From the IMG/VR virus record IMGVR_UViG_3300005002_000003: a stretch of DNA of 64,000 bases; one strand, written 5' to 3'. The position numbers and the translations under genes were made by a program. The notes under the pieces were generated by a model that saw only the letters and a program-made list of their open reading frames with translations, did not search any database and was not told the origin of the DNA. Source of the stretch: an uncultured virus (IMG/VR IMGVR_UViG_3300005002_000003) (Duplodnaviria > Heunggongvirae > Uroviricota > Caudoviricetes). Shown one piece after another: positions 7,881-64,000 of this stretch (positions are counted from its first letter, which is position 1; every line of letters begins with the position of its first letter).

Positions 7881-8415
7881 AAATGGCCGCTAGAACGGAT
7901 TCCAGGTTCAGCTTGTGAACCTTTTCCCACATCTGCTTTTTGTTAGTCTCCAGCGCTTTTCTGATCTTGTTCACACGCTTACGCAAACTGATGAGATTGA
8001 AGTTTCGAAACGAAGCGTTGTCTCTCAAGATGACTCTGATCTCCCCCCAGGATTTTTTCTGGATCTCGTATAGATAGAAAGCCGTGGCCAGCATCCTGGA
8101 ATCCCGGCGCTCTTTCTTGGGCTGAGTTTTGATGATGGCGCCGTCGAAGTGGTCGGCAATTTTATCCAGGTCTGAGATGTTGGTGAGCAAGCTGGCAAGA
8201 ATGTGGCCGTCGCTGTCACTGTCGCTGTCGAGGTCGCAGATATACCATGCGATCTCATTCAGCACGCGTGCGGCGTTGTTCTTCTCATCCTCTGTGCTGA
8301 CTTTGAGCCGGGTAATAGACGGGATCTCTGGTTTTTTTTGTCCGGGCAAGGGCGCCGTCATCTGAGGACTATCGTCGTCCTCGATATGGATTCGACGTAA
8401 GGGTTTTCGTGACAT
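7864..8415 (-). CDS. Possible Mor/C-family transcription activator
   Basis: KIADHFDGAIIKTQPKKERRD followed by an HTH-like segment resembles the Mor family HFGGxxIYIPK pattern; CTAA 7 nt before ATG 8415. Confidence 0.45.
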   Translation of the reverse strand: MSRKPLRRIHIEDDDSPQMTAPLPGQKKPEIPSITRLKVSTEDEKNNAARVLNEIAWYICDLDSDSDSDGHILASLLTNISDLDKIADHFDGAIIKTQPKKERRDSRMLATAFYLYEIQKKSWGEIRVILRDNASFRNFNLISLRKRVNKIRKALETNKKQMWEKVHKLNLESVLAAIYEQKI

Positions 8416-8441
8416 CAAGCCGTTAGGCAGATATCACGCTC

Positions 8442-9326
8442 TCAAGCCCCGGAGTGCATGCGGTGGAGTTCGGATCGCAAAACTTCCATCGTGCGATCAA
8501 AGGCCAGCTTCCCTCTTCTCTCATGATGCTGGAAAAACCGATCCACGGCGGCCTGCCCGTGCGTAAGAAATAACAGCACGGCACGCAGGCGATACTCGTC
8601 ATCCGCACTGTTCTCTGCGAAGTCAGAAGTGTCGTCAATGATGCGCGCAAGATGTTTGAGCACGAGATCAGGGTCCACGCGTTGCTGGACTTCACGGTCT
8701 AGGTCGGTGCTCGACAATATTTCGTATACCTTCCGCGACTCGTCGTTCTCTATATCAATGCTGACTGTGCGGTCCTCACCTTTGGGCTTGTGGTAGACGG
8801 CCTGGTAGACAGTAGAATTGAGATAGGCGCCAAAACTGATCTTGATTTTGAAATCAGGATTGTTGTAGTAATGCTCCACCAGATACCAGGCCGCCATGTG
8901 GGCGTGGTAGGGGAGATCCTTCGGGTCCACTTGATAGAGATGCTTCTTCAGGATGATGCTCTGCGCATAGGATTTCAGGATGCCGTACATGCTCCCCAGG
9001 ATATGCGGTGCGCGGTCTTGCTCGAAGTACTGTTTCTGGAGCTTCATCAAATCACGCTCGGTGGGGGGCAGACAGCACATATCGACACGGCAGTGCGGGC
9101 AGATGAACCCCGACTTCACCCACTTCTTCTTCTGGATTTTGCTGTCAAACAGGATGTTCTGCGCGCAGTACTTACAGCGGTAGCGCATGGGTTTCTCGGC
9201 CGGTGCCGGCACAAGTCGGATGCCTCCTGACACCGGGGACTTCAGCGGCAGGGCGCGTTTTCTGGCGGGCACCTTTTTCCTGGAGCGTTTGGGTTTCTGT
9301 GATTTGACCGTCATCTGTATAGACAA
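8442..9326 (-). CDS. Zn-ribbon protein with sigma70 region-2-like domain; candidate phage sigma factor
   Basis: CKYC...CPHC; YNNPDFKIKISFGAYLNSTVYQAV resembles sigma regions 2.3-2.4, followed by VSID; TTG start 6 nt after CTAA. Confidence 0.45.
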   Translation of the reverse strand: MSIQMTVKSQKPKRSRKKVPARKRALPLKSPVSGGIRLVPAPAEKPMRYRCKYCAQNILFDSKIQKKKWVKSGFICPHCRVDMCCLPPTERDLMKLQKQYFEQDRAPHILGSMYGILKSYAQSIILKKHLYQVDPKDLPYHAHMAAWYLVEHYYNNPDFKIKISFGAYLNSTVYQAVYHKPKGEDRTVSIDIENDESRKVYEILSSTDLDREVQQRVDPDLVLKHLARIIDDTSDFAENSADDEYRLRAVLLFLTHGQAAVDRFFQHHERRGKLAFDRTMEVLRSELHRMHSGA

Positions 9327-9381
9327 TAATCGTTAGCCCGGGCTCCCACTTGCACACTTTTTTCCCGAAACTAACACAGAT

Positions 9382-10353: not shown

Positions 10354-10378
10354 GGGTGGCCTGTCGGCCTAAAGCCAT

Positions 10379-10795
10379 ATGACTCACCTGGCTCTGGGCA
10401 TCAATTCGCTTCCACATACAATATTGGACTACGGCGATACGGAAGGTGTGTTCCTCACGCATGACGGTATTGATTACAGATGTTGCATGTTTGACGTCGA
10501 GTCTCCAGCAGTGAACAAGTATCGCGTAGCCCGAGTGGATCTCGGGAAGGGAGAAATCTGGATTCGCAAAGCCCTGGGGAAGGCCGAGAATGATCCCGCT
10601 CATCTCGTCACAACTGATGTCGAGCCAGAAGACAAAAACGGGCTTATTGAGGTCATCCTCAACCAGGGAGACGATGAACGCGACGAAGCAGGAAACCCAG
10701 TCTATTTCCCGCTTCGCGTCAGCAGAAGGACCGACATCTCCCTGCGCTTCTATTCACAAGATAAGGAGCATTCGGTCCAGGTTTGTTTTTATTGA
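10379..10795 (+). CDS. Hypothetical, possible head-closure/neck-type virion protein
   Basis: Beta-rich 138 aa ORF; CTAA-N6-ATG. Confidence 0.6.
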   Translation: MTHLALGINSLPHTILDYGDTEGVFLTHDGIDYRCCMFDVESPAVNKYRVARVDLGKGEIWIRKALGKAENDPAHLVTTDVEPEDKNGLIEVILNQGDDERDEAGNPVYFPLRVSRRTDISLRFYSQDKEHSVQVCFY

Positions 10796-10798
10796 GTC

Positions 10799-11593
10799 TC
10801 ACTCCTCCACCGGGATGGCGGCTTTGCAGGCCTCGGCTGTTGGGTGGCATTCGTCCCAGTTCCAGGTGTTATCTTTGGTATCCAGGACACCGTTTACTCC
10901 TACCAGATTAACTGTGCGCTTGTAGATTATTAGTTCCGGGATTGGATCGCCTACGTTCAGAATCAGTCTCTTGGAGGATACTGTAGCATAGAACTCCTCC
11001 CCCGGCAGAAACGGGAACCGCTTGCGGAGGGCGTCGTATTTGGCGGCCTTGTCGATAGCCTCATTTGACGGGAGGTATGTCATTGCCTTCAGCCGCTCCA
11101 CTTCTGCCCGTGCCGCAATCAGTGCTTCAGCGACATGCTGAATGGCATCGATGCCGAAAGGAAACTCGTCCGCGAGCCCGTATTCGAGCAATGCGCGCGT
11201 TTGGTGATCCGATTCCCACTCCTTCGCACAGCTTGCAACGTCCGGCGCACAGCACTTTTGATGCATGAGCCGCTCCACTTCTGCCTCTAGCTCTTTGATG
11301 CGGGCGTTGTCCTGGGTTTTCTTGCAAAGAGAGCCTGGCATGATGCATTCGCGCTCTCGCATCCACTCCCGCACAGCGTCTGCGATGACTTCTGCTTCTG
11401 CGGTCACCATGTGCGACCGGGCGCGCGGCTCGTAAAAACCCCGGCTTGCGTCCATTATCACTTGCTCAAGTGTTCGTGTGTCCATTTTGCTCTCCTTGTG
11501 GCATTTGCAATCAATCAGAGGCGCGCCGCAGTCCCGGCACTGGCCGTTGTATAGTGTGCTATCCATTGCCTTGCTCCCCGTATGGTATATCAA
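10799..11593 (-). CDS. Mosaic accessory protein (strong internal start at 11485)
   Basis: Repeated AEVERL coiled segments; AAGGAG SD before MDTRT. Confidence 0.6.
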   Translation of the reverse strand: MIYHTGSKAMDSTLYNGQCRDCGAPLIDCKCHKESKMDTRTLEQVIMDASRGFYEPRARSHMVTAEAEVIADAVREWMRERECIMPGSLCKKTQDNARIKELEAEVERLMHQKCCAPDVASCAKEWESDHQTRALLEYGLADEFPFGIDAIQHVAEALIAARAEVERLKAMTYLPSNEAIDKAAKYDALRKRFPFLPGEEFYATVSSKRLILNVGDPIPELIIYKRTVNLVGVNGVLDTKDNTWNWDECHPTAEACKAAIPVEE

Positions 11594-17210: not shown

Positions 17211-17446
17211 TTTCTTTTCCATGAGAAAACTTCTTCTGTGATACGGCGTTTTGCCGGCGGCCGGGGCCTCGGCGGGCCTTCCGTTAGAGGACGCGAGGGC
17301 AGTAGCTCTCCCTGGGGCTGTCTGGACTCCGCACGCTGAGCCAGGGTCGCGGTCTTCGTGAGGTCGTGATACACGGGCTTGCGGTAACGTCGATAGGTAA
17401 GCACTGACAGCACAACAAGCACAGCCACAAGTAAGGGGGTTTCCAT
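17207..17446 (-). CDS. Small membrane-anchored protein, probably leaderless
   Basis: N-terminal TM helix; ATG 6 nt after the -10 box. Confidence 0.55.
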   Translation of the reverse strand: METPLLVAVLVVLSVLTYRRYRKPVYHDLTKTATLAQRAESRQPQGELLPSRPLTEGPPRPRPPAKRRITEEVFSWKRK

Positions 17447-17452
17447 GTCGCC

Positions 17453-17480
17453 ATCCTACAGACGGCCGTAACAAAGTCAA
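17453..17480 (-). promoter_or_regulatory. Sigma70-like promoter heading the accessory operon
   Basis: TTGACT-16 nt-TAGGAT. Confidence 0.6.
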
Positions 17481-17523
17481 CCTGATTTCAATTGCTGAGG
17501 GCCGCCTGCCGTCCTAACGTCGT

Positions 17524-24409: not shown

Positions 24410-24622
24410 CTTGCCCACCTCCTGTGTTAAAGTTGAACTCATCATGAGTCCACGGTGTTAGTAGCGGAACAATTCTACCCGACGTCAACTCATAAAAGCG
24501 TTTGCTCGCGAATAGAGCTGATCTTCGTGAAAACCCCCTGGAAATGCGCGTGGCTTGCAGAATTTCATTTAAGAGTTTGCTATTGCAGTAAAAGAACTTG
24601 ACACCAGGCGCTGGTAGTAACT

Positions 24623-25753: not shown

Positions 25754-25768
25754 TCTTCCTAACTCTCT

Positions 25769-27040: not shown

Positions 27041-27052
27041 CTAATGCAAGGC

Positions 27053-35435: not shown

Positions 35436-35463
35436 TTGACAAAATCTCTACGAGAGATATAGT
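35436..35463 (+). promoter_or_regulatory. Sigma70-like promoter, probably giving a leaderless transcript
   Basis: TTGACA-16 nt-TATAGT, ATG 7 nt downstream. Confidence 0.75.
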
Positions 35464-35470
35464 TGTTTCT

Positions 35471-36130
35471 ATGAGACGAATGAACTTCAGGATCTCAGAG
35501 CGACAAGAGACCGCTCTTCTTTATCGACTTCTGGAATACACAGCACAGCCTCAGATAGTCGCGGCCTTGCTTCAAGCAATTCAGGGGCTCTCCTATGCTT
35601 TGATTGGAGGAGGTGCGGTTTCGCTGTATTCCGGCGGACGCAGAACGATCTCCAGGAATGACATGGACCTGCTGGTTAGCGATACCGAAGTAGAGTTTGT
35701 ATCTGCGGCAATGCGCGCACAGGGGTTCGTCTTTATGCGCCACAATGACTTTGACGGGAAATCCTGGCTGGTGTTTGCCTATGGGACCAGCGGACCCGCT
35801 GACGCCACGCAGGAAGTAGACATCGCTATTGCCAGCGACTCCCTGTCTCGTCAGGGCATAGCTGATGCTCGCGCAATGTCTCTGGACGGCGCACTGGTAA
35901 AAGTGGTCGCACCAGAAGTCCTGCTGACAATGAAGATAATCGCGGGGCGCGAAAAGGATCATCGAGATATCCTCTACGTACTGAAGTCGGTAGATGTGGC
36001 AGTCATTCAGGCCGCGCGAAAACTTGTTCAGCGTTATGCGGAAGCCCGCATCGAAGAGTTCGACCAGCTTGTGGAGGACGCGAGCTTGTTTGACTTTGAC
36101 CTGATAGGACAAATGAAGGTCGAGGACTGA
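35471..36130 (+). CDS. Nucleotidyltransferase (DUF6036/AbiEii-like)
   Basis: YALIGGGAV...NDMDLLV...VDI...PEVLLTMK...REKDHRD. Confidence 0.8.
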   Translation: MRRMNFRISERQETALLYRLLEYTAQPQIVAALLQAIQGLSYALIGGGAVSLYSGGRRTISRNDMDLLVSDTEVEFVSAAMRAQGFVFMRHNDFDGKSWLVFAYGTSGPADATQEVDIAIASDSLSRQGIADARAMSLDGALVKVVAPEVLLTMKIIAGREKDHRDILYVLKSVDVAVIQAARKLVQRYAEARIEEFDQLVEDASLFDFDLIGQMKVED

Positions 36131-41941: not shown

Positions 41942-42255
41942 TTGTCAGACACGAGAGAGGTGACGTGGAGGTCTGCGATGTGCATTGCCTGCATCGCAGT
42001 TGTCTGCATGTCCATCAAGACAAAGGTTCGTATTCTCCTGGTCGCGGCTATACGAGCTACCACAAGAGTCTCAGACTTGTTTGCATGACGAGAGAGGCTC
42101 GGGGCTGTCCGAATCCATTACCGAAGCCCTTGTGTTGTCACAAGCCCGATTTTCATAAAATCAAGCCCGGTGAATTCTATAAGACTTGCAGGAATTGCCG
42201 CACGCGAGTCAAAACCTCCACGGCGTTACTGATGCTCGGGACTAACACTCCATGA
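41938..42255 (+). CDS. Cys/His-rich hypothetical protein
   Basis: GTGA-coupled start, GGAGG SD, many Cys. Confidence 0.5.
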   Translation: MIVRHERGDVEVCDVHCLHRSCLHVHQDKGSYSPGRGYTSYHKSLRLVCMTREARGCPNPLPKPLCCHKPDFHKIKPGEFYKTCRNCRTRVKTSTALLMLGTNTP

Positions 42256-42665: not shown

Positions 42666-42697
42666 TTTCAACGCCCCGGCGTCACTAATCCCAGTAT

Positions 42698-44775: not shown

Positions 44776-44788
44776 GCTTGTTAGTCCG

Positions 44789-45907: not shown

Positions 45908-45983
45908 AGCGTGTTAGTCCCGGCAGATACCGGCTTCAAAAACCGATTGCCAGAGCGGATTATGGCGCCAGAACTGACGGCCA

Positions 45984-46526
45984 GTGCGGAAGAAAATCTC
46001 AACTCCTGAGCTTGAGCTGGCCGTCGTTGGCCTCATAGGTTACCGTCGTCAGACCATCGTACCCAACGTCTCCTGGGGACTGGGCTTTCGGCACGAGTGT
46101 GATCTCGTGGTGCTGAATCCCGACAGCGGCTACCTTGCGGAGATCGAACTCAAGATCAGCGTTGCGGACTTCCGCGCCGACCTGAAGAAAAACCACAGCC
46201 ACGACAGCATCTATCTCCGCAAGTTGTCGTATGCCATGCCGGAAGACGTAATGGAGAAAGTCCGCGCTGATGTCCCGGAGCGGGCCGGCATCATCTCTGT
46301 GAAAAGAGATTTTCGCGGCATATGCGTCGCGCGCTGGGAGCGCCAGGCAAAGCTGAACCGCAACGCAGTGCCACTGCCTGCGGATATGAAGGCGCATCTC
46401 TACCATCTGGCGGCCATGCGCATCTGGAGCCTGAAGGCGCATCTCAACAACCAGCGATTCTCGGCTTTGCGCGAGGAGTTACAGGAGTTGCGGCGACACT
46501 ACGCCCAGAGTCAGCCTGAGCCCTAA
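45984..46526 (+). CDS. MmcB-like PD-(D/E)xK nuclease
   Basis: HECDLVVL...EIELKISVADFRAD..K...YAMP...GII. Confidence 0.75.
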   Translation: MRKKISTPELELAVVGLIGYRRQTIVPNVSWGLGFRHECDLVVLNPDSGYLAEIELKISVADFRADLKKNHSHDSIYLRKLSYAMPEDVMEKVRADVPERAGIISVKRDFRGICVARWERQAKLNRNAVPLPADMKAHLYHLAAMRIWSLKAHLNNQRFSALREELQELRRHYAQSQPEP

Positions 46527-47852: not shown

Positions 47853-47884
47853 TCGTGATTCCCGGAGGCCTCACTAAGACCTCA

Positions 47885-51711: not shown

Positions 51712-51861
51712 ATGGGAATTGTATTGAAAGAAGGCGATCAGAGTCGGGAGATCAGCGAGGACGAGCTTCGGGCCCTGCGGGAACGCGAGGCACAGAGTGA
51801 GATCCGGCTGGTACAGGAAGACGACGGCGGGCTTCGCAAACTCGATAAACTGAAGAGCTGA
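51712..51861 (+). CDS. 49 aa protein (below the ORF track cutoff)
   Basis: CTAA-N6-ATG; MGIVLKEGDQSREISEDELRALRERE...; fills the gap before the HU-like gene. Confidence 0.6.
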   Translation: MGIVLKEGDQSREISEDELRALREREAQSEIRLVQEDDGGLRKLDKLKS

Positions 51862-51875
51862 GGCTCGGGGAGCAG

Positions 51876-52241: not shown

Positions 52242-52245
52242 GCAG

Positions 52246-52698: not shown

Positions 52699-52723
52699 GC
52701 CTGCTTTGTAACTAATTGCCGTA

Positions 52724-54412
52724 ATGGCACGTAATCTTCACCGCGCAACCCGCGATCTCAGTCAAACCCAGCTTGAAGCCGCAAGACAGATATTGCGTGG
52801 CTACCGTGGGCGAGTATCCGGCGGCCACAGCCTGCACAGCTATCGCGGCGATACCGACTTCAACCGCGTGGTGTTTCTCTGCGAAGGTCGGAAGGTCGCG
52901 GTGGACTTCCTTCCGCATGGCAGAACGCCATTCAGGATCGCCGAACTCCAGGACGGCCAGCGTGTTGCCACCCGCAAGATCACTGAAGCATCGGGGGTTT
53001 CGGGGTTTGTGAACAACCTCCTGGGAAAACAAAAAGCCGCCGCAAAGGATGCCGCAGTCGAGCCCGAGCTTCCTGTTCTGAAATCCGACGCCTATGCGAA
53101 GGACATTTTGCGCGGTAGCGATGTCTTCAAGGATGCCGAGCGCAAGATACGACTGTTCCTTCGAGGAGCAGGAGGCCTTGGCAAGCAACAGCTGTTTGTA
53201 CTATACGGCCAGGCTGGCGTGGGTAAGTCGATTGCGGCACGCGAAGCTCTGCTTGCGGAGTGCGGAGCAGAGACCAGCAGTGCGGAAATCCACAAACGTC
53301 TCAAACAATCCATCGCATTTGATCCCGAGGACTTCAAGGTCAGAATGGCCGCCAACCAGGCACGAGATCAAGCCCGTAATCTCTACACACGTTATCTGCA
53401 CAACTACACGTTGTCGAGAAAAGAAGACACACTGGTTCCGGAAACCGATGCCGATCTCAAGAACAAAGCTCTGGAGAAGGTGAAGGACGTCCTGAAGGAT
53501 CAGCTCTATGGATATGAACTTACGTTAGACGACGTGGAAGGTCACGGAACTCGCGTCAAGAAGACCGCAAGCGATCCCGTGGAGAAACTCAAGAAGCTCA
53601 GCGGCGACGACGCCAAGCAACCCTACCACCAGGAGAATGGCTGGATGGAAGCTCCAAACGAGATGTCCAATGAAGACCTCTACTTCCAGTGCTATGTCAG
53701 CAACGCCGCTACGACATTCATCGACGAAGGCGACTACTTCCTGTCGAAGTCCAACCCATTGATGAAGATCGTCACCGATAACAAGCAGTTCCGCCGACTG
53801 TCTTCCGGCAGTAAGTCGGGCTTTGCGGAGATCAACGGCTTCATCCTGCCCGACAGCTTCTGGTACTCCGGCCGCATGGTGATCACCACCAACCTCACTC
53901 CCAGGGATTTCGACGACGCCATCCGCACGCGCTCGGCGTCTTACGGACTCTATCTCTCGCTGGATCAGCTGTTCGACAGACTCCGGGATATCCTGCCAAA
54001 GATTCAGAGCAACGACCTGCCGCACCTGCCACCTGTTGTGCTGACTGGCATCCGCAACATCCTCAAGAAGTTCTCCGACCAGGGAGAACTCAAGCAGTTC
54101 GACTTCCGGACCTTCGTATTGCTTGCCGATGAATATGCGCTGATGATCGAAGACACTGTCAAAGAAGCCCGGGCAGAGAACCCCGAGTTTCCGGAGTTCT
54201 CCCCCTACGTGCAGAAAGACGAGACTCTTGATGCCGCTGACGAGAGGTTCCGTAACTGGAGACAGACTCCAGAGGGCCAGCAGATCGCACAGCGCGTTGG
54301 CAAGAAATTCCGCAAGATCATCCTGAATCAGATCCAGGCGATGAACCGCGCGCACGACAGAGACGCCAACATCGTGGAACTCAAGCCCAAAGCAGACGAG
54401 GAAGCGGCGTGA
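52724..54412 (+). CDS. AAA-type P-loop ATPase
   Basis: LYGQAGVGKS, FIDEGD, GRMVITTN, AIRTR; CTAA-N8-ATG. Confidence 0.8.
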   Translation: MARNLHRATRDLSQTQLEAARQILRGYRGRVSGGHSLHSYRGDTDFNRVVFLCEGRKVAVDFLPHGRTPFRIAELQDGQRVATRKITEASGVSGFVNNLLGKQKAAAKDAAVEPELPVLKSDAYAKDILRGSDVFKDAERKIRLFLRGAGGLGKQQLFVLYGQAGVGKSIAAREALLAECGAETSSAEIHKRLKQSIAFDPEDFKVRMAANQARDQARNLYTRYLHNYTLSRKEDTLVPETDADLKNKALEKVKDVLKDQLYGYELTLDDVEGHGTRVKKTASDPVEKLKKLSGDDAKQPYHQENGWMEAPNEMSNEDLYFQCYVSNAATTFIDEGDYFLSKSNPLMKIVTDNKQFRRLSSGSKSGFAEINGFILPDSFWYSGRMVITTNLTPRDFDDAIRTRSASYGLYLSLDQLFDRLRDILPKIQSNDLPHLPPVVLTGIRNILKKFSDQGELKQFDFRTFVLLADEYALMIEDTVKEARAENPEFPEFSPYVQKDETLDAADERFRNWRQTPEGQQIAQRVGKKFRKIILNQIQAMNRAHDRDANIVELKPKADEEAA

Positions 54413-54810
54413 ACTACTCTCCGGGAAAACCACCAGCAGATTACAAACCCGTCTTCGAAGCCAACGGCGGCAGTCGCAAGGAGTCCGTGCAGGACTTCAG
54501 AGATCGTTTCTACATCAGAGTTGATCTTGAAGACAAGAGAGCCGCACGCCAGCTCATTGGCAGTGCTGACGAGGAGCGCAACGTACACGACAAGGTTTTC
54601 TTCGTGTTCTACGACGACAGCAAACGAGATGCGGCTGTGGCGGCGCTGTCCGGCGCCGGAATTGCGAGCAAATCCGGACAGGACGTGCAACCCGAGCTTG
54701 TCGGCGCCCCGGAGCCCAACAGCAAGCCAGATGCCGTGGCACCGCAGTCAGCGATGAAGAAAGCCGTTACACAACCCCGGGAGCAGTTGAGCCTCTTCAA
54801 ACCCGACTAA
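54409..54810 (+). CDS. Hypothetical protein
   Basis: GTGA-coupled. Confidence 0.6.
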   Translation: MNYSPGKPPADYKPVFEANGGSRKESVQDFRDRFYIRVDLEDKRAARQLIGSADEERNVHDKVFFVFYDDSKRDAAVAALSGAGIASKSGQDVQPELVGAPEPNSKPDAVAPQSAMKKAVTQPREQLSLFKPD

Positions 54811-54833
54811 GACAGAAGAGAGGTGATGTTGTT

Positions 54834-55133
54834 ATGATGGAAAAACTGAAAGCCGTAGGTGCGAAACTCGAAGTAATGTTGCACACCGTTCTTGACTGGG
54901 CAACAGCGCAGATCAAGCGCCTTGATACGCCGCAGGAAATCGCAGTAGCCGCGACGCTTGTGATGATAACAGCAGACGCCGTGACTATCGGACGCTTTGG
55001 TGTCATCAAGTTCTTGATTGGCGTAGGCAAAGAAGTTCTGGAGTTCGTCTCCACTACTGCGCAGTCAGGAGGCTGGGTCTTCGTTGTCTGCATGCTGGTG
55101 TGCTACCTGATCGTAAAAGAAATCAGAAAATGA
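54834..55133 (+). CDS. Small membrane protein
   Basis: GAGGTG SD, hydrophobic segments. Confidence 0.6.
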   Translation: MMEKLKAVGAKLEVMLHTVLDWATAQIKRLDTPQEIAVAATLVMITADAVTIGRFGVIKFLIGVGKEVLEFVSTTAQSGGWVFVVCMLVCYLIVKEIRK

Positions 55134-56107
55134 GTTCTGTCGGCAAACAGAAACCCAGGGGCTTATTCAAGACCCGGGAAGACCTGAATTCTCTGGATGA
55201 ACTCCTGAAGGTCCAGCTCCGCGACGGCAACTGGAACTACGACGACTACATGGTGGGCCTCACCAACGGCATGATCCTCAGTCGTCACGTAGTTGCAGAT
55301 GACCCCGGGGAGCCAGCGTTTCGCAGGGCTCCCACACTCGAAGACGCAAGACAACTCCGCGACACCCTGGGGCCGGCCTACGCCGACATCTCGCTGGCTC
55401 AGCTCTGGCAAGGCATCATGGCAGAATTGAAGGAGCACGGCGACACCGCAGGAGACCTGGACGTAATTCCGGGCCGAGGCAGTGAGGAGTGGCTGACCGC
55501 CGCGAGGATCGCCGCCTCACATCTTCTGGAGAACCCCATCTACTACACAGAGATCAAGAAGATCGAGGAGTTCACGATATACGACTTGCAGAAGCGCGTC
55601 AATCAAGTCATCAAGCGCACCGCAGGCGAGCGTCGTAAGATCAAGGGCGTGATGGAGCGCGGCTTGCAGTTCGTGAACTTTGATCCTCTATTGGGGATAG
55701 CGTATTTCCTCGCAGAGCCTACCAGGAAATTCAGTGCCGACGAATTGGATTTTCAAGGAAACCCAAAAGGAGCGACTTCGGCTTACACACTCGAAGTGCG
55801 CTTCGTAGATTTTAAATCCTGGTTTGAGGACTGGCGCAAGGTAACTCTGGAGGAGTTTAAGGACTTCCTCAAAGTCTGCGACGTGCAGTTCTTCTGCTCG
55901 TGTCCTGCCTGGCACTTTATGCTGAAGTATCAGAACACACAGACCAATACAGCGATCTACAAGACCAACATTCCTGATCCAGTTTGGGCTCAGCGCAGTG
56001 GACAACCGCGCGGCGCCAATCTCTGCAAGCACGGCATGGCGATGACAACCAAGCTCACTCGCTATCCCGGACAGCTTCTGAAGGACATCCAGAGCAAACT
56101 GAAATAG
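55130..56107 (+). CDS. Multidomain protein with DUF5661-like segment and SWIM zinc finger
   Basis: GIMAELKEH...IAASHLLENPIYY; FFCSCPAW...LCKH. Confidence 0.7.
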   Translation: MSSVGKQKPRGLFKTREDLNSLDELLKVQLRDGNWNYDDYMVGLTNGMILSRHVVADDPGEPAFRRAPTLEDARQLRDTLGPAYADISLAQLWQGIMAELKEHGDTAGDLDVIPGRGSEEWLTAARIAASHLLENPIYYTEIKKIEEFTIYDLQKRVNQVIKRTAGERRKIKGVMERGLQFVNFDPLLGIAYFLAEPTRKFSADELDFQGNPKGATSAYTLEVRFVDFKSWFEDWRKVTLEEFKDFLKVCDVQFFCSCPAWHFMLKYQNTQTNTAIYKTNIPDPVWAQRSGQPRGANLCKHGMAMTTKLTRYPGQLLKDIQSKLK

Positions 56108-56109
56108 GG

Positions 56110-56138
56110 TTGACAAAAAACCACGGCGGAGATAGGGT
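56110..56138 (+). promoter_or_regulatory. Sigma70-like promoter, probably giving a leaderless transcript
   Basis: TTGACA-17 nt-TAGGGT, ATG 6 nt downstream. Confidence 0.65.
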
Positions 56139-56144
56139 GTCCGC

Positions 56145-56873
56145 ATGGATTACACCTCTCACCTCCCGCCTCGTCCTGATAAAGTCGAAGTCGGTCAGGT
56201 CTGGCGGGAGATCGTCAAGCACTCCCGTTATGACGAGCTTACTCTCGATGTGATATGGCTAGTTTTATCCGAGGTCTCTATCATGCGACTTGGTGGTAGC
56301 TATGGCCACCCTACTCCAGCAGGCGGCGCGCTGGTCTTCGAAGTCCCCACGAAATCGGAGGTGTGGCAATTACTATCCCTCCCACGCATAGAATTCAAAC
56401 CCGGACAGCTCTGGTATAACAGAGCTACCATGAAGCTGTTCCGCGCAGAGAGCAAACGAGGTACATTCTATCTCAGCGGTGACTGGCACCTCATTGAGGA
56501 TGCGCCATCTGACGCGAACCTTAATCTATCTGAAACAAAAAATAAAGGAGAAAACAAAATGTTCACACAAACACACAGGGTTTCAGACGTGGTGCTGAAG
56601 CAGATCGATCGGGAAACCATTGCAGACTCGGCGCAGGAGCTGGCACAGTTGTTTGGATACGTATCCGTTACCCATGACGACAGACTGACTCCTCGTTTTC
56701 GCATACCGGGTAAACTTGTGGGAGGTATCGACGTCACCCCGGAAGAAGTAGAAAAATTGTTTCGCGACCGCATTGTGGGCAACTCCGATCTCACAGTTCT
56801 CAACGCCGCATGCGGCTTTGGGATTGTGGAAAGAGTGGTCTTCGAAGAAATCAAGGAAGGAGATCGCCGATGA
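56145..56873 (+). CDS. Mosaic protein with internal start at 56559, paralogous to 36135..37256
   Basis: EVGQVWR; FRIPGKLVG domain; AAAGGAG SD before MFTQ. Confidence 0.7.
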   Translation: MDYTSHLPPRPDKVEVGQVWREIVKHSRYDELTLDVIWLVLSEVSIMRLGGSYGHPTPAGGALVFEVPTKSEVWQLLSLPRIEFKPGQLWYNRATMKLFRAESKRGTFYLSGDWHLIEDAPSDANLNLSETKNKGENKMFTQTHRVSDVVLKQIDRETIADSAQELAQLFGYVSVTHDDRLTPRFRIPGKLVGGIDVTPEEVEKLFRDRIVGNSDLTVLNAACGFGIVERVVFEEIKEGDRR

Positions 56874-57184
56874 AAGCAATCCGTAAACTCCTATTGCGCT
56901 TGCTCCAGAAGGAGCAACGCTGGGTAAGCGGCATGATGGAAGGCTACAACACCGAGGAGCCCGCAGGAGAACCGTCGCTTACCATATCATCGCCCTTCTC
57001 GATCTCCTCTTGCTCCAACTGTCCCTTTCGTATCATAGACCCGGAACACGTCTTTTGTGGATTACCGGGTTCCCGTCGTGACAAGAATGTCACGAAGTTT
57101 TATGACAACGATACACTGCCTAAGTGGTGTCCTCTGCCAGAGTCTCTCGATCGTGATCTCGTAGTGCAGAGATATAAATCATGA
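56870..57184 (+). CDS. Small Cys-rich protein
   Basis: ISSCSNCPF...LPKWCPL; AAGGAG SD. Confidence 0.6.
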   Translation: MKAIRKLLLRLLQKEQRWVSGMMEGYNTEEPAGEPSLTISSPFSISSCSNCPFRIIDPEHVFCGLPGSRRDKNVTKFYDNDTLPKWCPLPESLDRDLVVQRYKS

Positions 57185-57609
57185 AGCACTACCATTACAC
57201 ATTTGATGTGGACTTCAAGGCGGCAGGCGAGGACAACGACTTCAGCCATGCGCAGAAGCTATACGCTGTTTTGATGGAGGCTTTCGAAATTCTGTTGGGT
57301 AGGATTCGATACCATCAGCCTTTTGCTTACCCGCTCTTTGCGAATATCGAAGTCTCGCCCCGTGTGATGACCTATGTCAGAAAGCTGGCGTGCTACAAGA
57401 AAAGCGAACTCAGGTTGCCGCTTCCCGTGGTTGCGACAAATGTTATCGTTCTTCCTGAAGATTCGTCCAGTGAGATTCATGGTTATTACTCCTTTGTTAT
57501 GACAAAGCATCGCAGTTTGAATCGCGGTCTTGACGAGGGAGATAACGAGGCGGGATTTTCGATATATCTGGAAAACTACGATACTGTCTATCCGGGAGAA
57601 CCTCAATGA
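57181..57609 (+). CDS. Hypothetical protein
   Basis: ATGA-coupled. Confidence 0.6.
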   Translation: MKHYHYTFDVDFKAAGEDNDFSHAQKLYAVLMEAFEILLGRIRYHQPFAYPLFANIEVSPRVMTYVRKLACYKKSELRLPLPVVATNVIVLPEDSSSEIHGYYSFVMTKHRSLNRGLDEGDNEAGFSIYLENYDTVYPGEPQ

Positions 57610-57663
57610 GTGAAACCCATGACACGAACTGTGGGCCCCTCAGAGCACAGCAGGAGAAGAGTA

Positions 57664-58095
57664 ATGAAGCGTGATTACAGTCTGTTACGAGCAGTGATCT
57701 ATTTCGCAGAGCAGAAACTCAGGGAGACCTGGTGGCTCTGGCTCTATATCGGGATATTGATCCCCGTAGAATACATGGGGAGCGAGCTAAAGTGCCCCAA
57801 TTGCGGAGACTCGGGTTGGCTGGAGTTTCTTCTCCTCAGAGTGCTCTTGCTACCAATCGTTGCCACCCTGATCTTCAGCATGTCGGTCCTTGCACTACTC
57901 GCCGTGCTCCTAGTGAAAGACTTCTTCCCTGGCTGGATCAGGGAGTTTCTTCTTTGGATAAAGAGGAACTGGGCGCAGGCAAAAGTCAGGGCGAAGTATA
58001 ACTCGCCGGTAGAAGAATCCCAGTCCGTACCGGGCCCCGTAGTGAAGGTCAAGCGTGGGAGAGCGAGACGTTCCTCAGCAGGAGAGCCGAAATGA
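57664..58095 (+). CDS. Membrane protein
   Basis: AGGAG SD, two hydrophobic segments. Confidence 0.6.
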   Translation: MKRDYSLLRAVIYFAEQKLRETWWLWLYIGILIPVEYMGSELKCPNCGDSGWLEFLLLRVLLLPIVATLIFSMSVLALLAVLLVKDFFPGWIREFLLWIKRNWAQAKVRAKYNSPVEESQSVPGPVVKVKRGRARRSSAGEPK

Positions 58096-58889
58096 AATCT
58101 TTCTCCCTGATTGTGTTCCTTGCGCTGTGCATAACCTGTCAAGAGGAGCCCGCAACGGCTTTGACTTGCAGGGAAACCGAGACAGCTGACAGCGTGATAT
58201 CACGGCGCCAGTGGATTCTGGATTGTGTGAAGACTCAGACGTCATCACTGCAAACCTCAGCGGCTCAGCTGGAGCAGAAAGAAGACATCATTGATGAGTG
58301 CGCAGACCATTCCTTGAAGTTGCGCGTGACTACCTGTGAGCCTCAACTCGAAGTCTATGAATGGCGCAGGCTACAGGGACTGCGCGGGCTTCAGCGAGAA
58401 ATCCGTACAGGGGCAGGCCTGCGGCCGCGCGCGACTCTATTACGAGTCCACGGGAAGGCTTCCCCGTGGAAAGGAGTCGGCGAAGAAATGAGCAAACCCG
58501 GAAAGCCCAGTCACATAGATAAGTTGCACGCATTGCAGGAGTCCGGCTTGTTGCAGGAACTCTGTGACTATGCGGACTTCGCCCCCCAGAAGCTGGTAGC
58601 CGCCTACCGGGCGGTATCGCAGAGTCAGTTGCCAGCGGAGGCCTTGTTGACATCGCTTGACGCACTGGACTCCGAATGCCAGCGGCTGGGCCTGGAGTTT
58701 GATCTCGGTCACACTATGTTTTGCGGCCAGCGGATGAGAGATTTCCACGTCAGGAAGTCTGACCAGACCGGCGACCCCATCTGGTTGTCAGTGGAACAAC
58801 GCAGTGAATTCCAGCACGGACTTGCGGGCCTGCTGATTGCCATGACGTGTGTGTTAACCTGGCGGGGGTCTAAGCCTGACTGGGAATGA
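58092..58889 (+). CDS. Apparent fusion of a putative lipoprotein and a second gene starting at 58488
   Basis: Signal peptide ending in Cys; AAGGAG SD plus in-frame ATG at 58488. Confidence 0.6.
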   Translation: MKSFSLIVFLALCITCQEEPATALTCRETETADSVISRRQWILDCVKTQTSSLQTSAAQLEQKEDIIDECADHSLKLRVTTCEPQLEVYEWRRLQGLRGLQREIRTGAGLRPRATLLRVHGKASPWKGVGEEMSKPGKPSHIDKLHALQESGLLQELCDYADFAPQKLVAAYRAVSQSQLPAEALLTSLDALDSECQRLGLEFDLGHTMFCGQRMRDFHVRKSDQTGDPIWLSVEQRSEFQHGLAGLLIAMTCVLTWRGSKPDWE

Positions 58890-58914
58890 GGGCGCCTCCT
58901 ACTCCTAATGATCT

Positions 58915-59055
58915 GAAAACCTCCGCGCTATGGTGCGGAGCGCGAAATTCCACGCCGGGGTTTCTGCTGTCGTCGCCGGAGATTCTCCGGTCCCCTCGGG
59001 GTTACGACCCCGGGGATGTTGTCTCCGCCCGCTAGACATAGCGGGCATTTTTTTT
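58915..59055 (+). ncRNA. Candidate structured small RNA
   Basis: CTAA at 58905, three GC-rich hairpins and a terminator in a non-coding gap. Confidence 0.55.
59027..59055 (+). terminator. Intrinsic terminator
   Basis: GCCCGCTA-GACA-TAGCGGGC-A-T8. Confidence 0.88.
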
Positions 59056-59070
59056 GCCCACTAAAGCTAC

Positions 59071-60564
59071 ATGCCATTCCAAGCCTCCCGCGATCCGGGG
59101 AAAAACATCTCTCATCTCAAACACAGCAAGCACGGGAAGAAAATGAAGCCCGAGCAACGCCTGGCGGCGGGCCTCACCATGGCGCGTAAAGCCGGCGCCG
59201 ATATTCCGGAGAAAGTCGAGGAAAGTCGCACGCTGTTTATCGACGGCCGGCAGGCTTTCAATGCCAGGGGCCAGAAGATCGCAACTCTGGAGTCCCTTCA
59301 GCACGGCTTTGAGATCGCCGCCATGCGGGGCTTCTCGGAGGTTGTGGATGTCCGAAGCAAGGCGCGATACGTGGAAGCCAAAGGAAAATTACAGGAAGGC
59401 GGCGGTGCCGGCGTCCAGGTGTTTTTCAAAGCGCACCTCACGCCAGCTGGTAAACCCGACACTTACTCCATGCGAGGAGAAATCCAACTGATATCTTACA
59501 ACGATTCAATCTCCTCAGAAGACGAGAGGAACGACGAGATTGACCTCGGCACCATCAAAGTCAAATTACATCCTGAAGTTGTGAAAGAACTGCGCCAGAA
59601 AATGCGTAGCGAACAGCAACTCACCACAAAGAAGTTCAGCCAGACTATTCGCATCACCCATGCTGAGTCGCATGGCTTCGTAGTGAGTGGCGGCTGGATT
59701 CGCAAGCCACTTCCCGACAGTGTCTCTACGCCCGGTGGAAGTACTTCTTCAGCATTTCTCTCCGTGGAAGTAACCTACGGGCACGACATGATTGTTCAGG
59801 AAGAATCCAACTTGTGGACTTGGTATCCATCCGAAGACGTGAAGGGACTGTACGCAGTCCTCGATAGTTTTGATGACGAAGAGGAACTTACTGAGAGCGT
59901 GCAGGACACCAAAGTAGAGGAAAGTCGCACACTGTTCATGGTCCAAAGCAAGGCGCGATACGTGGAGGCTCATGCAGATGTCCCTGCCTTACAGAAGCGC
60001 ACAGCAGACGCGGTCCAGAAATTTGGAGACCTGGCGGCAACCGCTGAGAAACATCTGGCAGACGCCACCTCACAGCCCACTTATGTAAGTGAGCTGGAAA
60101 CCGTTTATCAGGCAACTTCAGAACAGTTTCTGAAGGGCGTTACACTTATGGAGCAGGCCTCAAAAGGGCTCTATCGATTTCTGTATTCCCCTGATGACGT
60201 GAGCGAAATCATGTCATCTCTCACCGAGAGCGCGCAGGACACCTTGAAGAAAGACGTCGTGGCGTACTTCACAGCGAAAATGCCAGAAGAAGTCCAGCAG
60301 GCCTGGGCAAACGCCAGCGCCAATCTCATGCACGGTCCCTCCGCCGGAGAGGGCACCTTCCAGAGCAACACGGCAATTGTCAAGGAATGGGCAGACGCCA
60401 ATATCTTCGATGTCTATTACGACGAGCAAACCGGAGAAGTAATGACCGACGAGCCGCAAGGCTTCGAAGACGGCGATGAGTGGGTTGAGCCCGGAGAATA
60501 CTGGCAGATTGACGGCTATGATGCCAAACGCTGGGTATTTGGCGAACTTGCGCGTTACGTATGA
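59071..60564 (+). CDS. Multidomain late protein, probable internal head protein
   Basis: CTAA-N6-ATG; internal duplications KVEESRTLF, SKARYVEA, LTES.QDT. Confidence 0.75.
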   Translation: MPFQASRDPGKNISHLKHSKHGKKMKPEQRLAAGLTMARKAGADIPEKVEESRTLFIDGRQAFNARGQKIATLESLQHGFEIAAMRGFSEVVDVRSKARYVEAKGKLQEGGGAGVQVFFKAHLTPAGKPDTYSMRGEIQLISYNDSISSEDERNDEIDLGTIKVKLHPEVVKELRQKMRSEQQLTTKKFSQTIRITHAESHGFVVSGGWIRKPLPDSVSTPGGSTSSAFLSVEVTYGHDMIVQEESNLWTWYPSEDVKGLYAVLDSFDDEEELTESVQDTKVEESRTLFMVQSKARYVEAHADVPALQKRTADAVQKFGDLAATAEKHLADATSQPTYVSELETVYQATSEQFLKGVTLMEQASKGLYRFLYSPDDVSEIMSSLTESAQDTLKKDVVAYFTAKMPEEVQQAWANASANLMHGPSAGEGTFQSNTAIVKEWADANIFDVYYDEQTGEVMTDEPQGFEDGDEWVEPGEYWQIDGYDAKRWVFGELARYV

Positions 60565-60872
60565 GAGAGACTATGATCGACTCCAGATACGCCGCAGACA
60601 TGCGTTTCCTTCGCGAGGGAGATACTGACCGCGAGATGCGCGCACTACGCGAAGGCGTAATGGATTACAAACATACGCCAACCAATCTTCAGAACTTGGC
60701 GTCCAAAAATCCACTAGCTTCGCCGCGCACATCAGGCGTCAGCGATGACGACTATCTGCGAAAGCACGGCGCCAGATTGCCGGCCCCACGCCAGGAAGAC
60801 AATCTGCTCGCCCCGGCCAACAGGCTCTGCAACTCGCGATTAAGAAAGGCCTGGTGCAGGGACACTTTGTAA
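60561..60872 (+). CDS. Small hypothetical late protein
   Basis: ATGA-coupled; MRxLREG twice. Confidence 0.55.
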   Translation: MRETMIDSRYAADMRFLREGDTDREMRALREGVMDYKHTPTNLQNLASKNPLASPRTSGVSDDDYLRKHGARLPAPRQEDNLLAPANRLCNSRLRKAWCRDTL

Positions 60873-60915
60873 AAAGGGCGTGACAAATCACGATGAGGGT
60901 TCGCACTAAACCTCT

Positions 60916-62517
60916 ATGAACTTCAGTCATCTGTCGTCCGAATTCCAACAGCCCCTTAAAGACGAACTCTGGGCACTCCAGGAACGCAAGCTTATCGAAG
61001 GCCAACACAGTCACTACACTCTGGATGAACTCCGTGCCATGCCTACTCTCAGTCAAAGTCAGGCCGACAATCTGAAGTTTGATGATGGCAGGACTCGTGT
61101 GTGGCTGTCGCGCATGAAGAAAGCCGATGGCGCGCCTTACAACAACCAGGTTACGGTAGAGGTTCTACACAATGGCCGCTGGGAGACCAGCGAAGAATAC
61201 CCGGCTGGACAGGCCCTGAACTGGGATCGGAAACGGAAGCGTCTGGATGCCAAATACGACGCAGAAGCACGGAGGCCCTCTGTTGGCGGCCATGCTCCGT
61301 ATCCGCGAGGAAGTCGTGCCGCGAAGTGGATCGGAGAAGCACGCCGGAGCACAGACATTGGCGACGGATTCTACATCCACGACAGTGGATTCGATGTCAA
61401 TGGCAACTGGCGCGTAACGATTTCCAAAGGCGCCAACCGCGCAGTGGGCATCCAGACCAACGGAAATGCAGATGCCGCACACCACAAGTCGATTCCGGAG
61501 ATCGCCGCAGACCCCAGGGCCGTGCAGGAACTCAAGGACTTCTACATGAACTTCATCCACAAGAAGAACCGCAGTAGAGGTGGCGCGGCTCAGCGCACAC
61601 TTCCAGCAGGTAGTGATGACTGGAGCGGATTCCAGGAAGCCGATGACAAGAAAGTCACTGCGCTTCAGAACCGGATCTCTGGTCTCCTTGGCCCCCAGAA
61701 CCTCAAGGCAATTGTGGAGCCCAACACCGATAAGCAAGCCGTTGTGAAGCCCGCAGAAGCACTGGAGCAAGCGGAAGAGAAGACCTGGGCGGACAAAGTC
61801 AAATCTGTTCTCACCACAGCGAAGCTGAAGTTCCAACCACAGGGAACCGCTTACTTCATCGTAGACTACCCCGAGGATCTGAAGGAGAACCGCCGGGTGT
61901 CACAAGCCGATCTCGAAGACATGATCGCGAGGTTCAATGCGGAGGGCTCCGACTTCCGTCTCGCTGGCTCCTACGGATATCTCGACCTCTGGACAAAGAC
62001 TCCAGACGGTAAGGATGTTCGCCTGGCGTCGGGAAGCCGCAAGGACATCTACGACGCTCTTGTGAAGAACCGCTTCAAGTTCCGGGAAGCGTCTCCAGTG
62101 GATACGCTCTATATCGACCTGGATAACGCAATCGACTTTCTGGAGCGTACGTTTTTCAACGAGGACGACGTCAGCTTTGAGTTAAAGAGTGCAGGCCATA
62201 ACAAGGAACTCGGTCTGCCATTCGCGATCATGAGCATTCAGATTCAGCCTTCAGGGCTAGGGCCTAGATTTGCTCCAGTCGAACTGGACGTCAAAATTCA
62301 GAAGCTACCAGGAGGCGAGATGCGATACAGTCTGGAAGCGTTACCCAGCACTCGCTTACCGCAATGGACAGCAATCATTCAAAAGAATGAAGGTGCAGTC
62401 AATAATCTTGAAGATCGCCTGGTTATGGCCGTGAAGAAAGTCCGTTCTGTCTTAAACAAACTGCTCAGTAAGACAGAGTCCAGCCGTCACGCCAAGTTCC
62501 GCGAGGTCCGAAAGTAA
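60916..62517 (+). CDS. Multidomain late protein, probable internal head protein
   Basis: CTAA-N6-ATG; small domains separated by hydrophobic-x-E motifs. Confidence 0.75.
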   Translation: MNFSHLSSEFQQPLKDELWALQERKLIEGQHSHYTLDELRAMPTLSQSQADNLKFDDGRTRVWLSRMKKADGAPYNNQVTVEVLHNGRWETSEEYPAGQALNWDRKRKRLDAKYDAEARRPSVGGHAPYPRGSRAAKWIGEARRSTDIGDGFYIHDSGFDVNGNWRVTISKGANRAVGIQTNGNADAAHHKSIPEIAADPRAVQELKDFYMNFIHKKNRSRGGAAQRTLPAGSDDWSGFQEADDKKVTALQNRISGLLGPQNLKAIVEPNTDKQAVVKPAEALEQAEEKTWADKVKSVLTTAKLKFQPQGTAYFIVDYPEDLKENRRVSQADLEDMIARFNAEGSDFRLAGSYGYLDLWTKTPDGKDVRLASGSRKDIYDALVKNRFKFREASPVDTLYIDLDNAIDFLERTFFNEDDVSFELKSAGHNKELGLPFAIMSIQIQPSGLGPRFAPVELDVKIQKLPGGEMRYSLEALPSTRLPQWTAIIQKNEGAVNNLEDRLVMAVKKVRSVLNKLLSKTESSRHAKFREVRK

Positions 62518-62825
62518 TGAAAGCCCTGCTTCTTACCCTGGCGCTGTTGTGGCCTATGGCCCTCAGCGCTCAGGAGGAACCCCAGGACAATCACGACTGG
62601 TTTGTGTTCAACGGAAAGACAGGAGAATGTATCCCCGCAATGGCGGGCACGAAGAAGCTGTCTCCGGCTCACGCGCTCAATGGCTTTCGGTGTGACGTCA
62701 AGGCCTGGGACTGGAAAGCCGGCTGGGTGGTGTTGCAATGCAATGACGCCAAGATCCAGGGCCTGTTGTTTTTCTCGCTTGACATAAATACGTGTCAGGC
62801 TATAAGGGAATCTCTGCTGTTCTGA
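62517..62825 (+). CDS. Small secreted protein
   Basis: Signal peptide MKALLLTLALLWPMALSA, four Cys. Confidence 0.65.
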   Translation: MKALLLTLALLWPMALSAQEEPQDNHDWFVFNGKTGECIPAMAGTKKLSPAHALNGFRCDVKAWDWKAGWVVLQCNDAKIQGLLFFSLDINTCQAIRESLLF

Positions 62826-62861
62826 CTACGATCTCCAGCGGCAGAAGGAGACTAAACCAGC

Positions 62862-64000
62862 ATGACTCCCTCTACTCGTGACCCCCGTGATCCTCAATAC
62901 CAGAGATACCTTCGTGCTGTAGCCGGCGCTCAGCGCGTGCTACAAGAACGCCAGGTGGTGGAAAATCTTGAGTCAGGTCAAACCGTTCAACTCTACCTCT
63001 GCTACATCGGCGACGGCTACCTGTATGGCGTCAGCGACAACGACGCCGCAAGATCCCCCAGCTACTGGGCCGGGGTAGATGAAGGCATGGACATCGTGCA
63101 GGCCACGTTCCCTGCGGCCATAGCACAAGACCTTCTGAGCTTCACGAACTCCGAGGCCTCCTCCAGCGTAGGCGACGGCTACGAGGCCGCTGATCTCGCC
63201 GCAAAGCATATGCAAAACGACACCGTCATCTACTCCAGCAAGGGCGAAGCAGAAGACGGCATGATGGAATCCGCTAGAGTGGCACAGTCTCCGGCCCCGC
63301 GATGGAACGAGTCACTGACGCATGTTCAGCAACAACTGAGTTCAATTGACCCCGCTGAGTTCGAAGCCCGCATGAACGCGGCAAAAAACTTCAAGCAACT
63401 CTCCGCAGTTCTGGATGACTACGGCATTGATATCAACCTCTCCAAACAGGGTGATACTTACCAGTGGCAGATTGCAGGCGCTCCGAAGATGTCAGCAAAT
63501 GGACGCGGGTTCCAGAAAGCTCGGACCTCCATCACTTCGCAATTGAAGCGGGACATGGTTCCCTCCGGCGCGCGGGTTAACGAAGACGGAGACAGACTCT
63601 CTGGTGATGATCCATCCTCGCTTCAGGAATCCGTAGAAGGATCATCCTTACTGATCAAAGAAGTAGCACGCGATCTTATTTCTATGTCGGTAGCGGATGC
63701 GCTGGAACGCGAAAACCATGACGCGCTATCCGATTTTGTCAGGTCTCAGGAAGACATTACGGAAACTGTGCCTATAGGGTTGCAAGAACACGGGATTGAC
63801 ATAGATAGTTACATTGCGCCAGTCGAAGAACTCGTGAGACAAATTGCAGAACAAATTGGCTCCGAAAACCTGGGCAAACTCCAGGACGTAGATGATCGAG
63901 CACTGTGGTTGGTAATAATGGGTCCGATCCTCAATCATGGCGTAGGCCCTACAGATGATCCCGCTCTGGCAACGGTTTACAAGGAGGTGGGTTCTCCTCG
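62862..64000 (+). CDS. Partial acidic multidomain late protein (runs off the window end; absent from the ORF track)
   Basis: CTAA-N6-ATG at 62862; frame MTPSTRDPRDPQYQRYLRAV... read as open to 64000. Confidence 0.75.
   Translation, partial: MTPSTRDPRDPQYQRYLRAVAGAQRVLQERQVVENLESGQTVQLYLCYIGDGYLYGVSDNDAARSPSYWAGVDEGMDIVQATFPAAIAQDLLSFTNSEASSSVGDGYEAADLAAKHMQNDTVIYSSKGEAEDGMMESARVAQSPAPRWNESLTHVQQQLSSIDPAEFEARMNAAKNFKQLSAVLDDYGIDINLSKQGDTYQWQIAGAPKMSANGRGFQKARTSITSQLKRDMVPSGARVNEDGDRLSGDDPSSLQESVEGSSLLIKEVARDLISMSVADALERENHDALSDFVRSQEDITETVPIGLQEHGIDIDSYIAPVEELVRQIAEQIGSENLGKLQDVDDRALWLVIMGPILNHGVGPTDDPALATVYKEVGSP

Follow-up and report, generated by a model that had tools for sequence, protein, structure and literature searches.

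A CTAA element ahead of start codons in an uncultured T4-portal phage, read as a probable phage-specific promoter of predicted leaderless or near-leaderless mRNAs

In the uncultured Caudoviricetes record IMG/VR IMGVR_UViG_3300005002_000003 (G000), the tetramer CTAA stands a few nucleotides upstream of many start codons, which raises the question of whether it is a signal for transcription, a signal for translation or a by-product of stop codons. G000 is a linear virus record of 73,074 nt, with 54% GC and approximately 51% completeness, and the window analyzed here is its bases 1-64,000. An earlier sequence-only reading of the window had proposed that CTAA is a four-base late promoter without a -35 box and that transcription begins at or near the start codon, the late programme being built on leaderless translation. 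The CTAA feature is real, and the interpretation favored here, with a probability of roughly 0.8 overall, is a promoter that yields predicted leaderless or near-leaderless mRNAs at most of its sites in G000.

Enrichment and spacing of CTAA in G000

CTAA is tied as the second-rarest tetramer of G000, with 97 copies on both strands (observed/expected 0.57). At N5-9 (Nn being n nucleotides between CTAA and the start codon) it precedes candidate starts of 21 genes versus 1.47 expected among 113 genes, a list that was assembled by hand and was not fully blind, as small genes named in the sequence-only reading were included. The corresponding ratio of 14.3 is the highest of 256 tetramers, the next being 3.5, and when only the first possible start of each gene is counted, 16 genes have CTAA at N5-9 versus 0.37 expected. 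The spacers peak at N6 (12 sites), with three sites at N7. Local base shuffling (5000 rounds) gave a mean of 7.6 and a maximum of 20 versus the 21 observed, but is a weaker control because it ignores the avoidance of CTAA. All 18 CTAA sites proposed earlier have the coordinates and spacers claimed, and additional near-start sites lie beyond the window at G000 65456 (N8) and 71530 (N6). Of 26 chosen sites, 25 have A or C just before CTAA, versus 24 of the 71 others; the four-base motif was correct in its core, but the motif is better written (A/C)CTAA here and TACTAAT(A) in relatives. Two other tetramers, CTAG (observed/expected 0.26) and GTAC (0.33), are strongly avoided in G000 and are possibly host restriction sites.

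The starts that follow CTAA also differ from others in their Shine-Dalgarno (SD) sites. With what we take to be the anti-SD string, an SD of -5 kcal/mol or stronger was found at one of 20 near sites, versus 39 of 55 other starts that were hand-picked partly by SD; the absence of SD sites was thus borne out, the exception being 62862, where an upstream SD had already been pointed out. The start codons at the 20 near sites are 16 ATG, three GTG and one TTG, and the first 40 nt of the genes fold more weakly (-2.6 versus -4.9 kcal/mol, p 3e-4). Proteins on record have exactly these starts in six of ten near-site proteins checked, and not in the other four. The TTG start proposed at 9326 is doubtful: the protein on record has 290 amino acids (aa), which fits ATG 9314.

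An artefact of stop codons would arise if the TAA of CTAA, at N6 or N9, were simply in frame with the start, or if it were the stop of an upstream gene from which ribosomes reinitiate after termination. The site at 46533 fits this, and had been flagged as weaker for that reason: its N6 is in frame and its TAA is the stop of the 180-aa gene 45984-46526. This is the only one of the 20 near-site TAAs that ends a listed gene, however; three others end open reading frames (ORFs) of 68-90 codons outside the gene list, several sites lie between divergent genes, and N5, N7 and N8 are out of frame. In the positional-enrichment check that had been called for, the control tetramers GTAA, ATAA, TTAA, CTGA and CTAG are unenriched (ratios 0.3-1.2). 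The artefact is largely refuted by these controls and has next to no probability left. The CTAA sites of the window that bear on a promoter, and one associated hairpin, are as follows.

8423..8426, - strand: CTAA, N7 to ATG 8415; 183-aa conserved gene
9333..9336, - strand: CTAA upstream of sigma-like gene, N6 to TTG 9326 or N18 to ATG 9314; diverges from the CTAA at 9371
9371..9374, + strand: CTAA, N7 to ATG 9382; nucleotidyltransferase-like
10369..10372, + strand: CTAA, N6 to ATG 10379
17514..17517, + strand: CTAA, N6 to ATG 17524; endolysin-like (weak TIGR02869 match, E 0.024)
24458..24461, - strand: leadered CTAA, pyrimidine-purine step at N6; heads operon of 394-aa gene, 184-aa gene and DNA polymerase
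25759..25762, + strand: CTAA, N6 to ATG 25769; the homologue in relative G001 has TACTAAT at N28 plus an SD
27041..27044, + strand: CTAA, N8 to ATG 27053
42242..42245, + strand: CTAA, N6 to ATG 42252
42685..42688, + strand: CTAA, N9 to ATG 42698
44781..44784, - strand: CTAA, N5 to ATG 44775
45914..45917, - strand: CTAA, N6 to GTG 45907; protein with a Big_5 Ig domain, to which homologues align from the first residue on
46523..46526, + strand: CTAA, N6 to GTG 46533; tail protein
47874..47877, + strand: CTAA, N7 to ATG 47885; T4-like portal, PF07230
51702..51705, + strand: CTAA, N6 to ATG 51712; 49 aa
52712..52715, + strand: CTAA, N8 to ATG 52724
59027..59055, + strand: terminator-like hairpin plus T run; ends 5 nt before the CTAA at 59061
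59061..59064, + strand: CTAA, N6 to ATG 59071; a related strain's match to this DNA begins at 59058
60906..60909, + strand: CTAA, N6 to ATG 60916
62852..62855, + strand: CTAA, N6 to ATG 62862; strong SD upstream

The motif in relatives and the predicted transcription start

The relatives set consists of 75 loci collected via portal homologues, some of them redundant, with 23-39% GC and including the complete genome G001 (155.6 kb); its contigs are related to each other and are therefore not independent samples. Upstream enrichment of the motif, for which a look at relatives had been proposed, holds there too: TACTAAT lies upstream of the portal gene in 23 of 55 relatives (N17-79) and is associated with 28 of 190 genes in G001, 12 of 141 in G003 and 16 of 99 in G004, where 2.8, 2.1 and 1.7 would be expected. 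Its distances to ATG over all loci form a near group at N4-9 (27 sites, one with an SD) and a far group at N10-45 (151 sites, 104 with an SD), with only three sites in the gap at N11-15, and the peak at N5-8 is absent from seven control 7-mers of similar composition. Homologous genes switch between the two forms. Before the tail-gene homologue, five relatives have the motif at N5-8 and eight have it at N21-101, homologues of the 8415 gene have TACTAAT at N6 (L010/L053) or at N28 (L098), and the near-start share of the motif is 0 of 28 in G001, 8 of 16 in G002 and 4 of 6 in L055, compared with 18 of 31 among the intergenic CTAA sites of G000. A motif that varies in its distance to the start where an SD is present, and otherwise abuts a start lacking one, has the pattern of a promoter -10 element rather than of a ribosome-binding signal, and (A/C)CTAA and TACTAAT are very probably one phage-specific promoter shared across the clade.

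The position of the transcription start was approached through CTAA sites that have no gene start nearby. The ATG peak supplied the N6 offset, which was then put to the test at 13 intergenic sites without a near start. Transcription initiators as a rule carry a pyrimidine-purine (Y|R) step; this step is present at N6 in 11 of the 13, among them the site upstream of the major capsid gene with its leader (background 0.24, p 7e-6), versus 0-7 of 13 at other offsets and 4/20, 7/18, 4/18, 5/23 and 6/25 for control 4-mers at N6. In the relatives the Y|R peak is at N5 (73/147), which equals their near-start peak offset. CTAA sites that lie between genes and have Y|R at N6 but no near start are located in the window at 6578(+), 12022(-), 15799(+), 34898(-) and 58905(+) and at G000 70526(-); some start-less sites oppose neighboring genes and may drive antisense RNAs.

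Could CTAA instead be a translation-initiation signal on long polycistronic mRNAs, replacing the SD by way of an unusual anti-SD or a phage protein? The N5-9 spacing would also suit an SD, and the near sites lack one. This explanation is nevertheless very unlikely, as the motif of the relatives lies 15-45 nt upstream alongside a normal SD, CTAA is found 108 nt before the capsid gene and after terminator-like hairpins, and the Y|R step is present where no start codon follows. The promoter interpretation can be compared with a ruler inside the same genome, since host-type TANNNT promoters may also have ATG at N6-7: this is the case for 4 of 15 TTGACA-N16/18-TANNNT matches in G000, including the following.

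35436..35473, + strand: host-type promoter TTGACA-16-TATAGT, N7 to ATG 35471; taken as a ruler of the spacing at leaderless starts
56110..56147, + strand: host-type promoter TTGACA-17-TAGGGT, N6 to ATG 56145
17444..17480, - strand: host-type promoter TTGACT-16-TAGGAT, N6 to ATG 17446

The sequences of these promoters suggest that leaderless mRNA of early genes is likewise translated in the host, and leaderless starts can no longer be regarded as a device of late genes only, as had been supposed. In G001 a second recurring upstream motif, TTCTATATATTATA, precedes many + strand accessory genes (L081-L086) and is likely to mark an early/middle promoter class.

In the proposed mechanism, (A/C)CTAA would be the -10 core of a phage-specific promoter that is non-early (mostly late) and needs no -35 box. 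With a phage sigma factor bound, the host RNA polymerase would open the DNA at CTAA and start transcription 6 nt past it, a point that at most G000 sites would coincide with the start codon or precede it by 1-3 nt; ribosomes would load directly on the 5' AUG/GUG, operon-internal genes would rely on ordinary SD initiation, and the long SD leader of the capsid gene would have been retained because it permits high output. The surroundings of the sites are compatible with initiation at the motif. Terminator-like hairpins precede CTAA at 59061 and at G000 67401, and in G002 two divergent starts 26 nt apart have one TTAGTATACTAA palindrome in common. Contigs from RNA runs were compared for four of seven listed runs over positions 42001-62000 of the window, with differences taken from 40 of 340 rows. 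Two of these contigs, from a related strain, match this DNA from 59058 onward and are unrelated to it upstream of that point, the comparison giving the boundary of the match rather than the motif bases; the runs X3-X7 hold small shares. Contigs X1 and X2 have a joint that skips 1071 nt at window 59865-60937, which suggests strain variation among large CTAA-headed genes.

Several observations weigh against this interpretation. The RNA-run contigs span nearly the whole stretch, some cross CTAA sites, they may include DNA and, being assembled, they carry no information on transcript starts or levels; 66 of the 97 CTAA copies fall inside genes; and of the 20 near sites just 11 have the Y|R step at N6. 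Short leaders would result at the eight near sites of 20 that are at N5 or N7-9, and such leaders lower leaderless translation in Caulobacter (10.1101/2020.05.06.081141). There is also a base bias upstream of the 20 G000 sites, with G in 13 of 20 at -17 nt from the C of CTAA and a pyrimidine in 18 of 20 at 12 nt before it. The claim that there is no -35 box stands insofar as no clear -35 is seen and the relatives have no upstream consensus among 61 motif sites, but given the weak bias "-10 only" may be too strict.

Gene classes and candidate readers of the motif

Near CTAA sites precede 6 of 7 recognizable virion/lysis genes versus 0 of 18 replication/metabolism genes (hand-classified, p 4e-5). 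The virion genes preceded by CTAA at any distance encode portal, tail, Ig-domain, protease-like, terminase-like, endolysin-like and capsid proteins, the labels prohead protease, terminase and endolysin being our assumption from motifs recognized in the proteins plus weak hits; a terminase-like profile had no meaningful match in the PDB. The replication genes of G000 include DNA polymerase, helicase, exonuclease and a clamp-like protein (31519, phrog_947). The description of the set as rich in virion functions is thus supported for the near sites, but CTAA also heads operons that hold DNA polymerase and exonuclease, a further point against a strictly late promoter, and therefore "non-early" is safer than "late", the timing being a deduction. 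Assignment of the gene at 24445 as RecA-like was dropped for want of family support.

The seventh virion/lysis gene, without a near site, is that of the major capsid protein, which is gp23-like (PDB 9ukm, E 6e-6) and encoded just beyond the window. It has a leadered CTAA site and a leader of approximately 100 nt with an SD-like AAAAGG. The idea of a late programme built on leaderless starts accordingly would apply to most promoter-proximal sites and not to the capsid gene, which keeps its leader and SD. The region at G000 67340-67513 (L001:7340-7513) consists of a terminator-like hairpin, then CTAA, then this leader, which is maybe structured. In three relatives the motif is 130-200 nt upstream of the capsid gene, and it is possible that the capsid leaders of G000 and relatives are regulatory RNA.

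The gene that itself follows the CTAA at 9333..9336 encodes a candidate for the protein that reads the motif.

8442..9314, - strand: candidate sigma factor, 290 aa; zinc ribbon, predicted sigma2 and helical C-terminal domain

The protein has an N-terminal CxxC..CxxC zinc ribbon and a predicted sigma2 domain at aa 82-178, and the gene is kept in relatives. A score of 0.92-0.94 to Sigma70_r2 clusters in an atlas served as a lead only. Comparison with a sigma profile by HHalign gave E 5e-4, versus 0.057 for the best of 30 column shuffles; the model of aa 82-178 aligns with SigC (Z 9.4, root-mean-square deviation (rmsd) 2.8, 88 aa), and 50 of 50 structural matches listed are sigma-containing entries, this being a re-scoring of Foldseek's own hits. 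On the other side, the sigma match is weak by sequence, the model has a predicted local distance difference test (pLDDT) of 69 and a predicted template-modelling score (pTM) of 0.37, no row of the Foldseek search reached E 0.001, and helical domains can owe a Z below approximately 13 to an arrangement that is simply common. Full-length sigma factors align at their C-terminal region with the C-terminal part of the candidate, at high rmsd, and a check for Sigma4 found these helices solely inside such alignments, with no Pfam hit. CTAA lies upstream of the gene in G000, and three relatives' copies are without TACTAAT. The zinc-ribbon protein is the most likely candidate for the reader of CTAA, at slightly worse than even odds.

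A gp55-type reader, which the comparison with T4 had implied, was not found: phrog_234 (gp55) had no match at E<=1 in G000, of which 51% is present, or in five relatives including the complete G001, and the sigma candidate matched no gp55 family, though a very remote kinship is conceivable. An alternative candidate is the sigma of approximately 205 aa that resembles the extracytoplasmic function (ECF) type and lies near a terminase-like gene in relatives (L086:6127-6765, L077:1126-1758, L078:1378-1986). The ECF-like sigma of G001, G003 and G004 was not found in the G000 contig, but its absence is unproven because the contig ends in a terminase-like gene, near which relatives carry this sigma.

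The failure to find gp55 would also suit a promoter read by the host housekeeping sigma after remodelling by a phage activator, as has been proposed for the Thermus phage Lalka27a, whose TAGGGT late promoters are a precedent; the weak upstream bias of G000 points the same way. The motif, however, could not be brought into agreement with TANNNT in any of the registers tried, the sixth position counted from the T of CTAA being T in 3 of 20 sites, and the clade encodes sigma-like proteins of its own. Reading by a remodelled host sigma is therefore considered unlikely.

Known systems and the place of the clade

The phage-specific promoter proposed here has a known counterpart in T4. The T4 late promoter is TATAAATA at -13..-6, read by gp55, and that of Aeh1 is the variant CTAAATA from -12 (PMC1524935, PMC3121705; Aeh1 in PMC1524935). 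Like these, the G000 element is a short -10-region sequence that lacks a clear -35 and precedes virion genes, and the phage has a gp23-like capsid and a T4-like portal; TACTAATA of the relatives equals TATAAATA at 6 of 8 positions, and Aeh1 has CTAA too. Unlike T4, a test for TATAAATA-like 8-mers failed, the core being MCTAA here and TACTAATA in relatives, with variable bases after CTAA in G000; CTAA would lie at -10..-7 with the start codon on the predicted +1, as start codons at N5-6 leave no space for a +1 at N7-8; and in place of the gp55 that G000 and the complete G001 seem to lack there is a candidate sigma that combines a zinc ribbon with a helical domain at the C-terminus.

Phages with leaderless late mRNA are already known, and G000 would be a new version of that arrangement. 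Middle and late transcripts of the Thermus phages phiYS40 and Lalka27a are mostly leaderless (bioRxiv 10.64898/2026.04.20.719267, PMC3594737), and Lalka27a has many late promoters, including divergent pairs, with a -10 TAGGGT and a start 6 bp downstream (bioRxiv 10.64898/2026.04.20.719267). G000 is similar in its leaderless late output, distinct -10 with a start 6 bp on and divergent pairs, all predicted from sequence here. It differs in that the Thermus phage -10 boxes obey TANNNT and CTAA does not, that Lalka27a encodes no sigma whereas the G000 clade has sigma-like genes, and that homologous genes in this clade switch between leaderless and SD-led. Bacillus phage AR9 has a late promoter AACA-N6-TA/G (PMC5312081), which shares a four-base upstream element and a pyrimidine-purine start at fixed distance, but its reader is a multisubunit RNA polymerase of the phage and it gives long leaders (26-491 nt). 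Leaderless genes of Deinococcus-Thermus have TANNNT 6-7 bp upstream of the ORF (PMC12340547); the spacing to the start codon and the lack of an SD are alike, but that element is the host sigmaA consensus and not phage-specific. phiKZ has no leaderless transcript early in infection, and its TACT motif was ruled out as a match to CTAA/TACTAAT, since it sits at -22.

Other features of G000 were recorded in passing. The window has two tandem S-adenosylmethionine decarboxylase-like genes (2476-3269, - strand), a peptide deformylase (38143-38712) and an HU-like gene (51876). Beyond it, at G000 69.1-71.4 kb, lies a pair of elements whose ends match (CGGAATTATCCC) and whose transposase-like tails are truncated (L001:9100-9800, 10480-11430), presumably IS1595-like; both have cargo ORFs with an identical N-terminus, each after ACTAAAGATAC and a short SD-like leader.

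Searches by tblastn of 50,697 phage records for cultured relatives gave one weak portal match, and nothing was matched by the tail protein, the sigma candidate or the portal of a relative; the G000 polymerase matched distant polymerases only among cultured phage records; and a literature search, most subscription papers being outside it, found no description of the motif or clade among the matches listed. Single-sequence scans of viral contigs did not find a close relative of G000, so no GC-rich sister locus was readable. With regard to the host, one relative is in a Bacteroidota-labelled bin, which mis-binning may explain. In a portal tree (FastTree, 73 rows), the leaderless-rich G000, G002 and L055 are on separate branches outside a large AT-rich group; the backbone is unresolved, and therefore the direction of change between leadered and leaderless cannot be read from it. 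A more ambitious picture is tentative and, on present evidence, rather doubtful: an undescribed clade of approximately 150-kb T4-portal phages in which a zinc-ribbon sigma unlike gp55 reads a -10-only promoter of 5-7 bases, homologous virion genes flip between SD-led and leaderless, and nearly all promoter-proximal late genes of a GC-rich lineage, the capsid gene excepted, have become leaderless, the presence of a leader setting virion protein output.

If the interpretation is true, CTAA/TACTAAT would be a new class of phage promoter with a candidate new sigma family, and the clade would offer a natural series in which one promoter serves homologous genes with and without 5' leaders. Such a series would make the origin and cost of leaderless genes directly testable, and the motif would be a practical marker of gene starts, and of likely late genes, in a clade where most proteins lack a family match.

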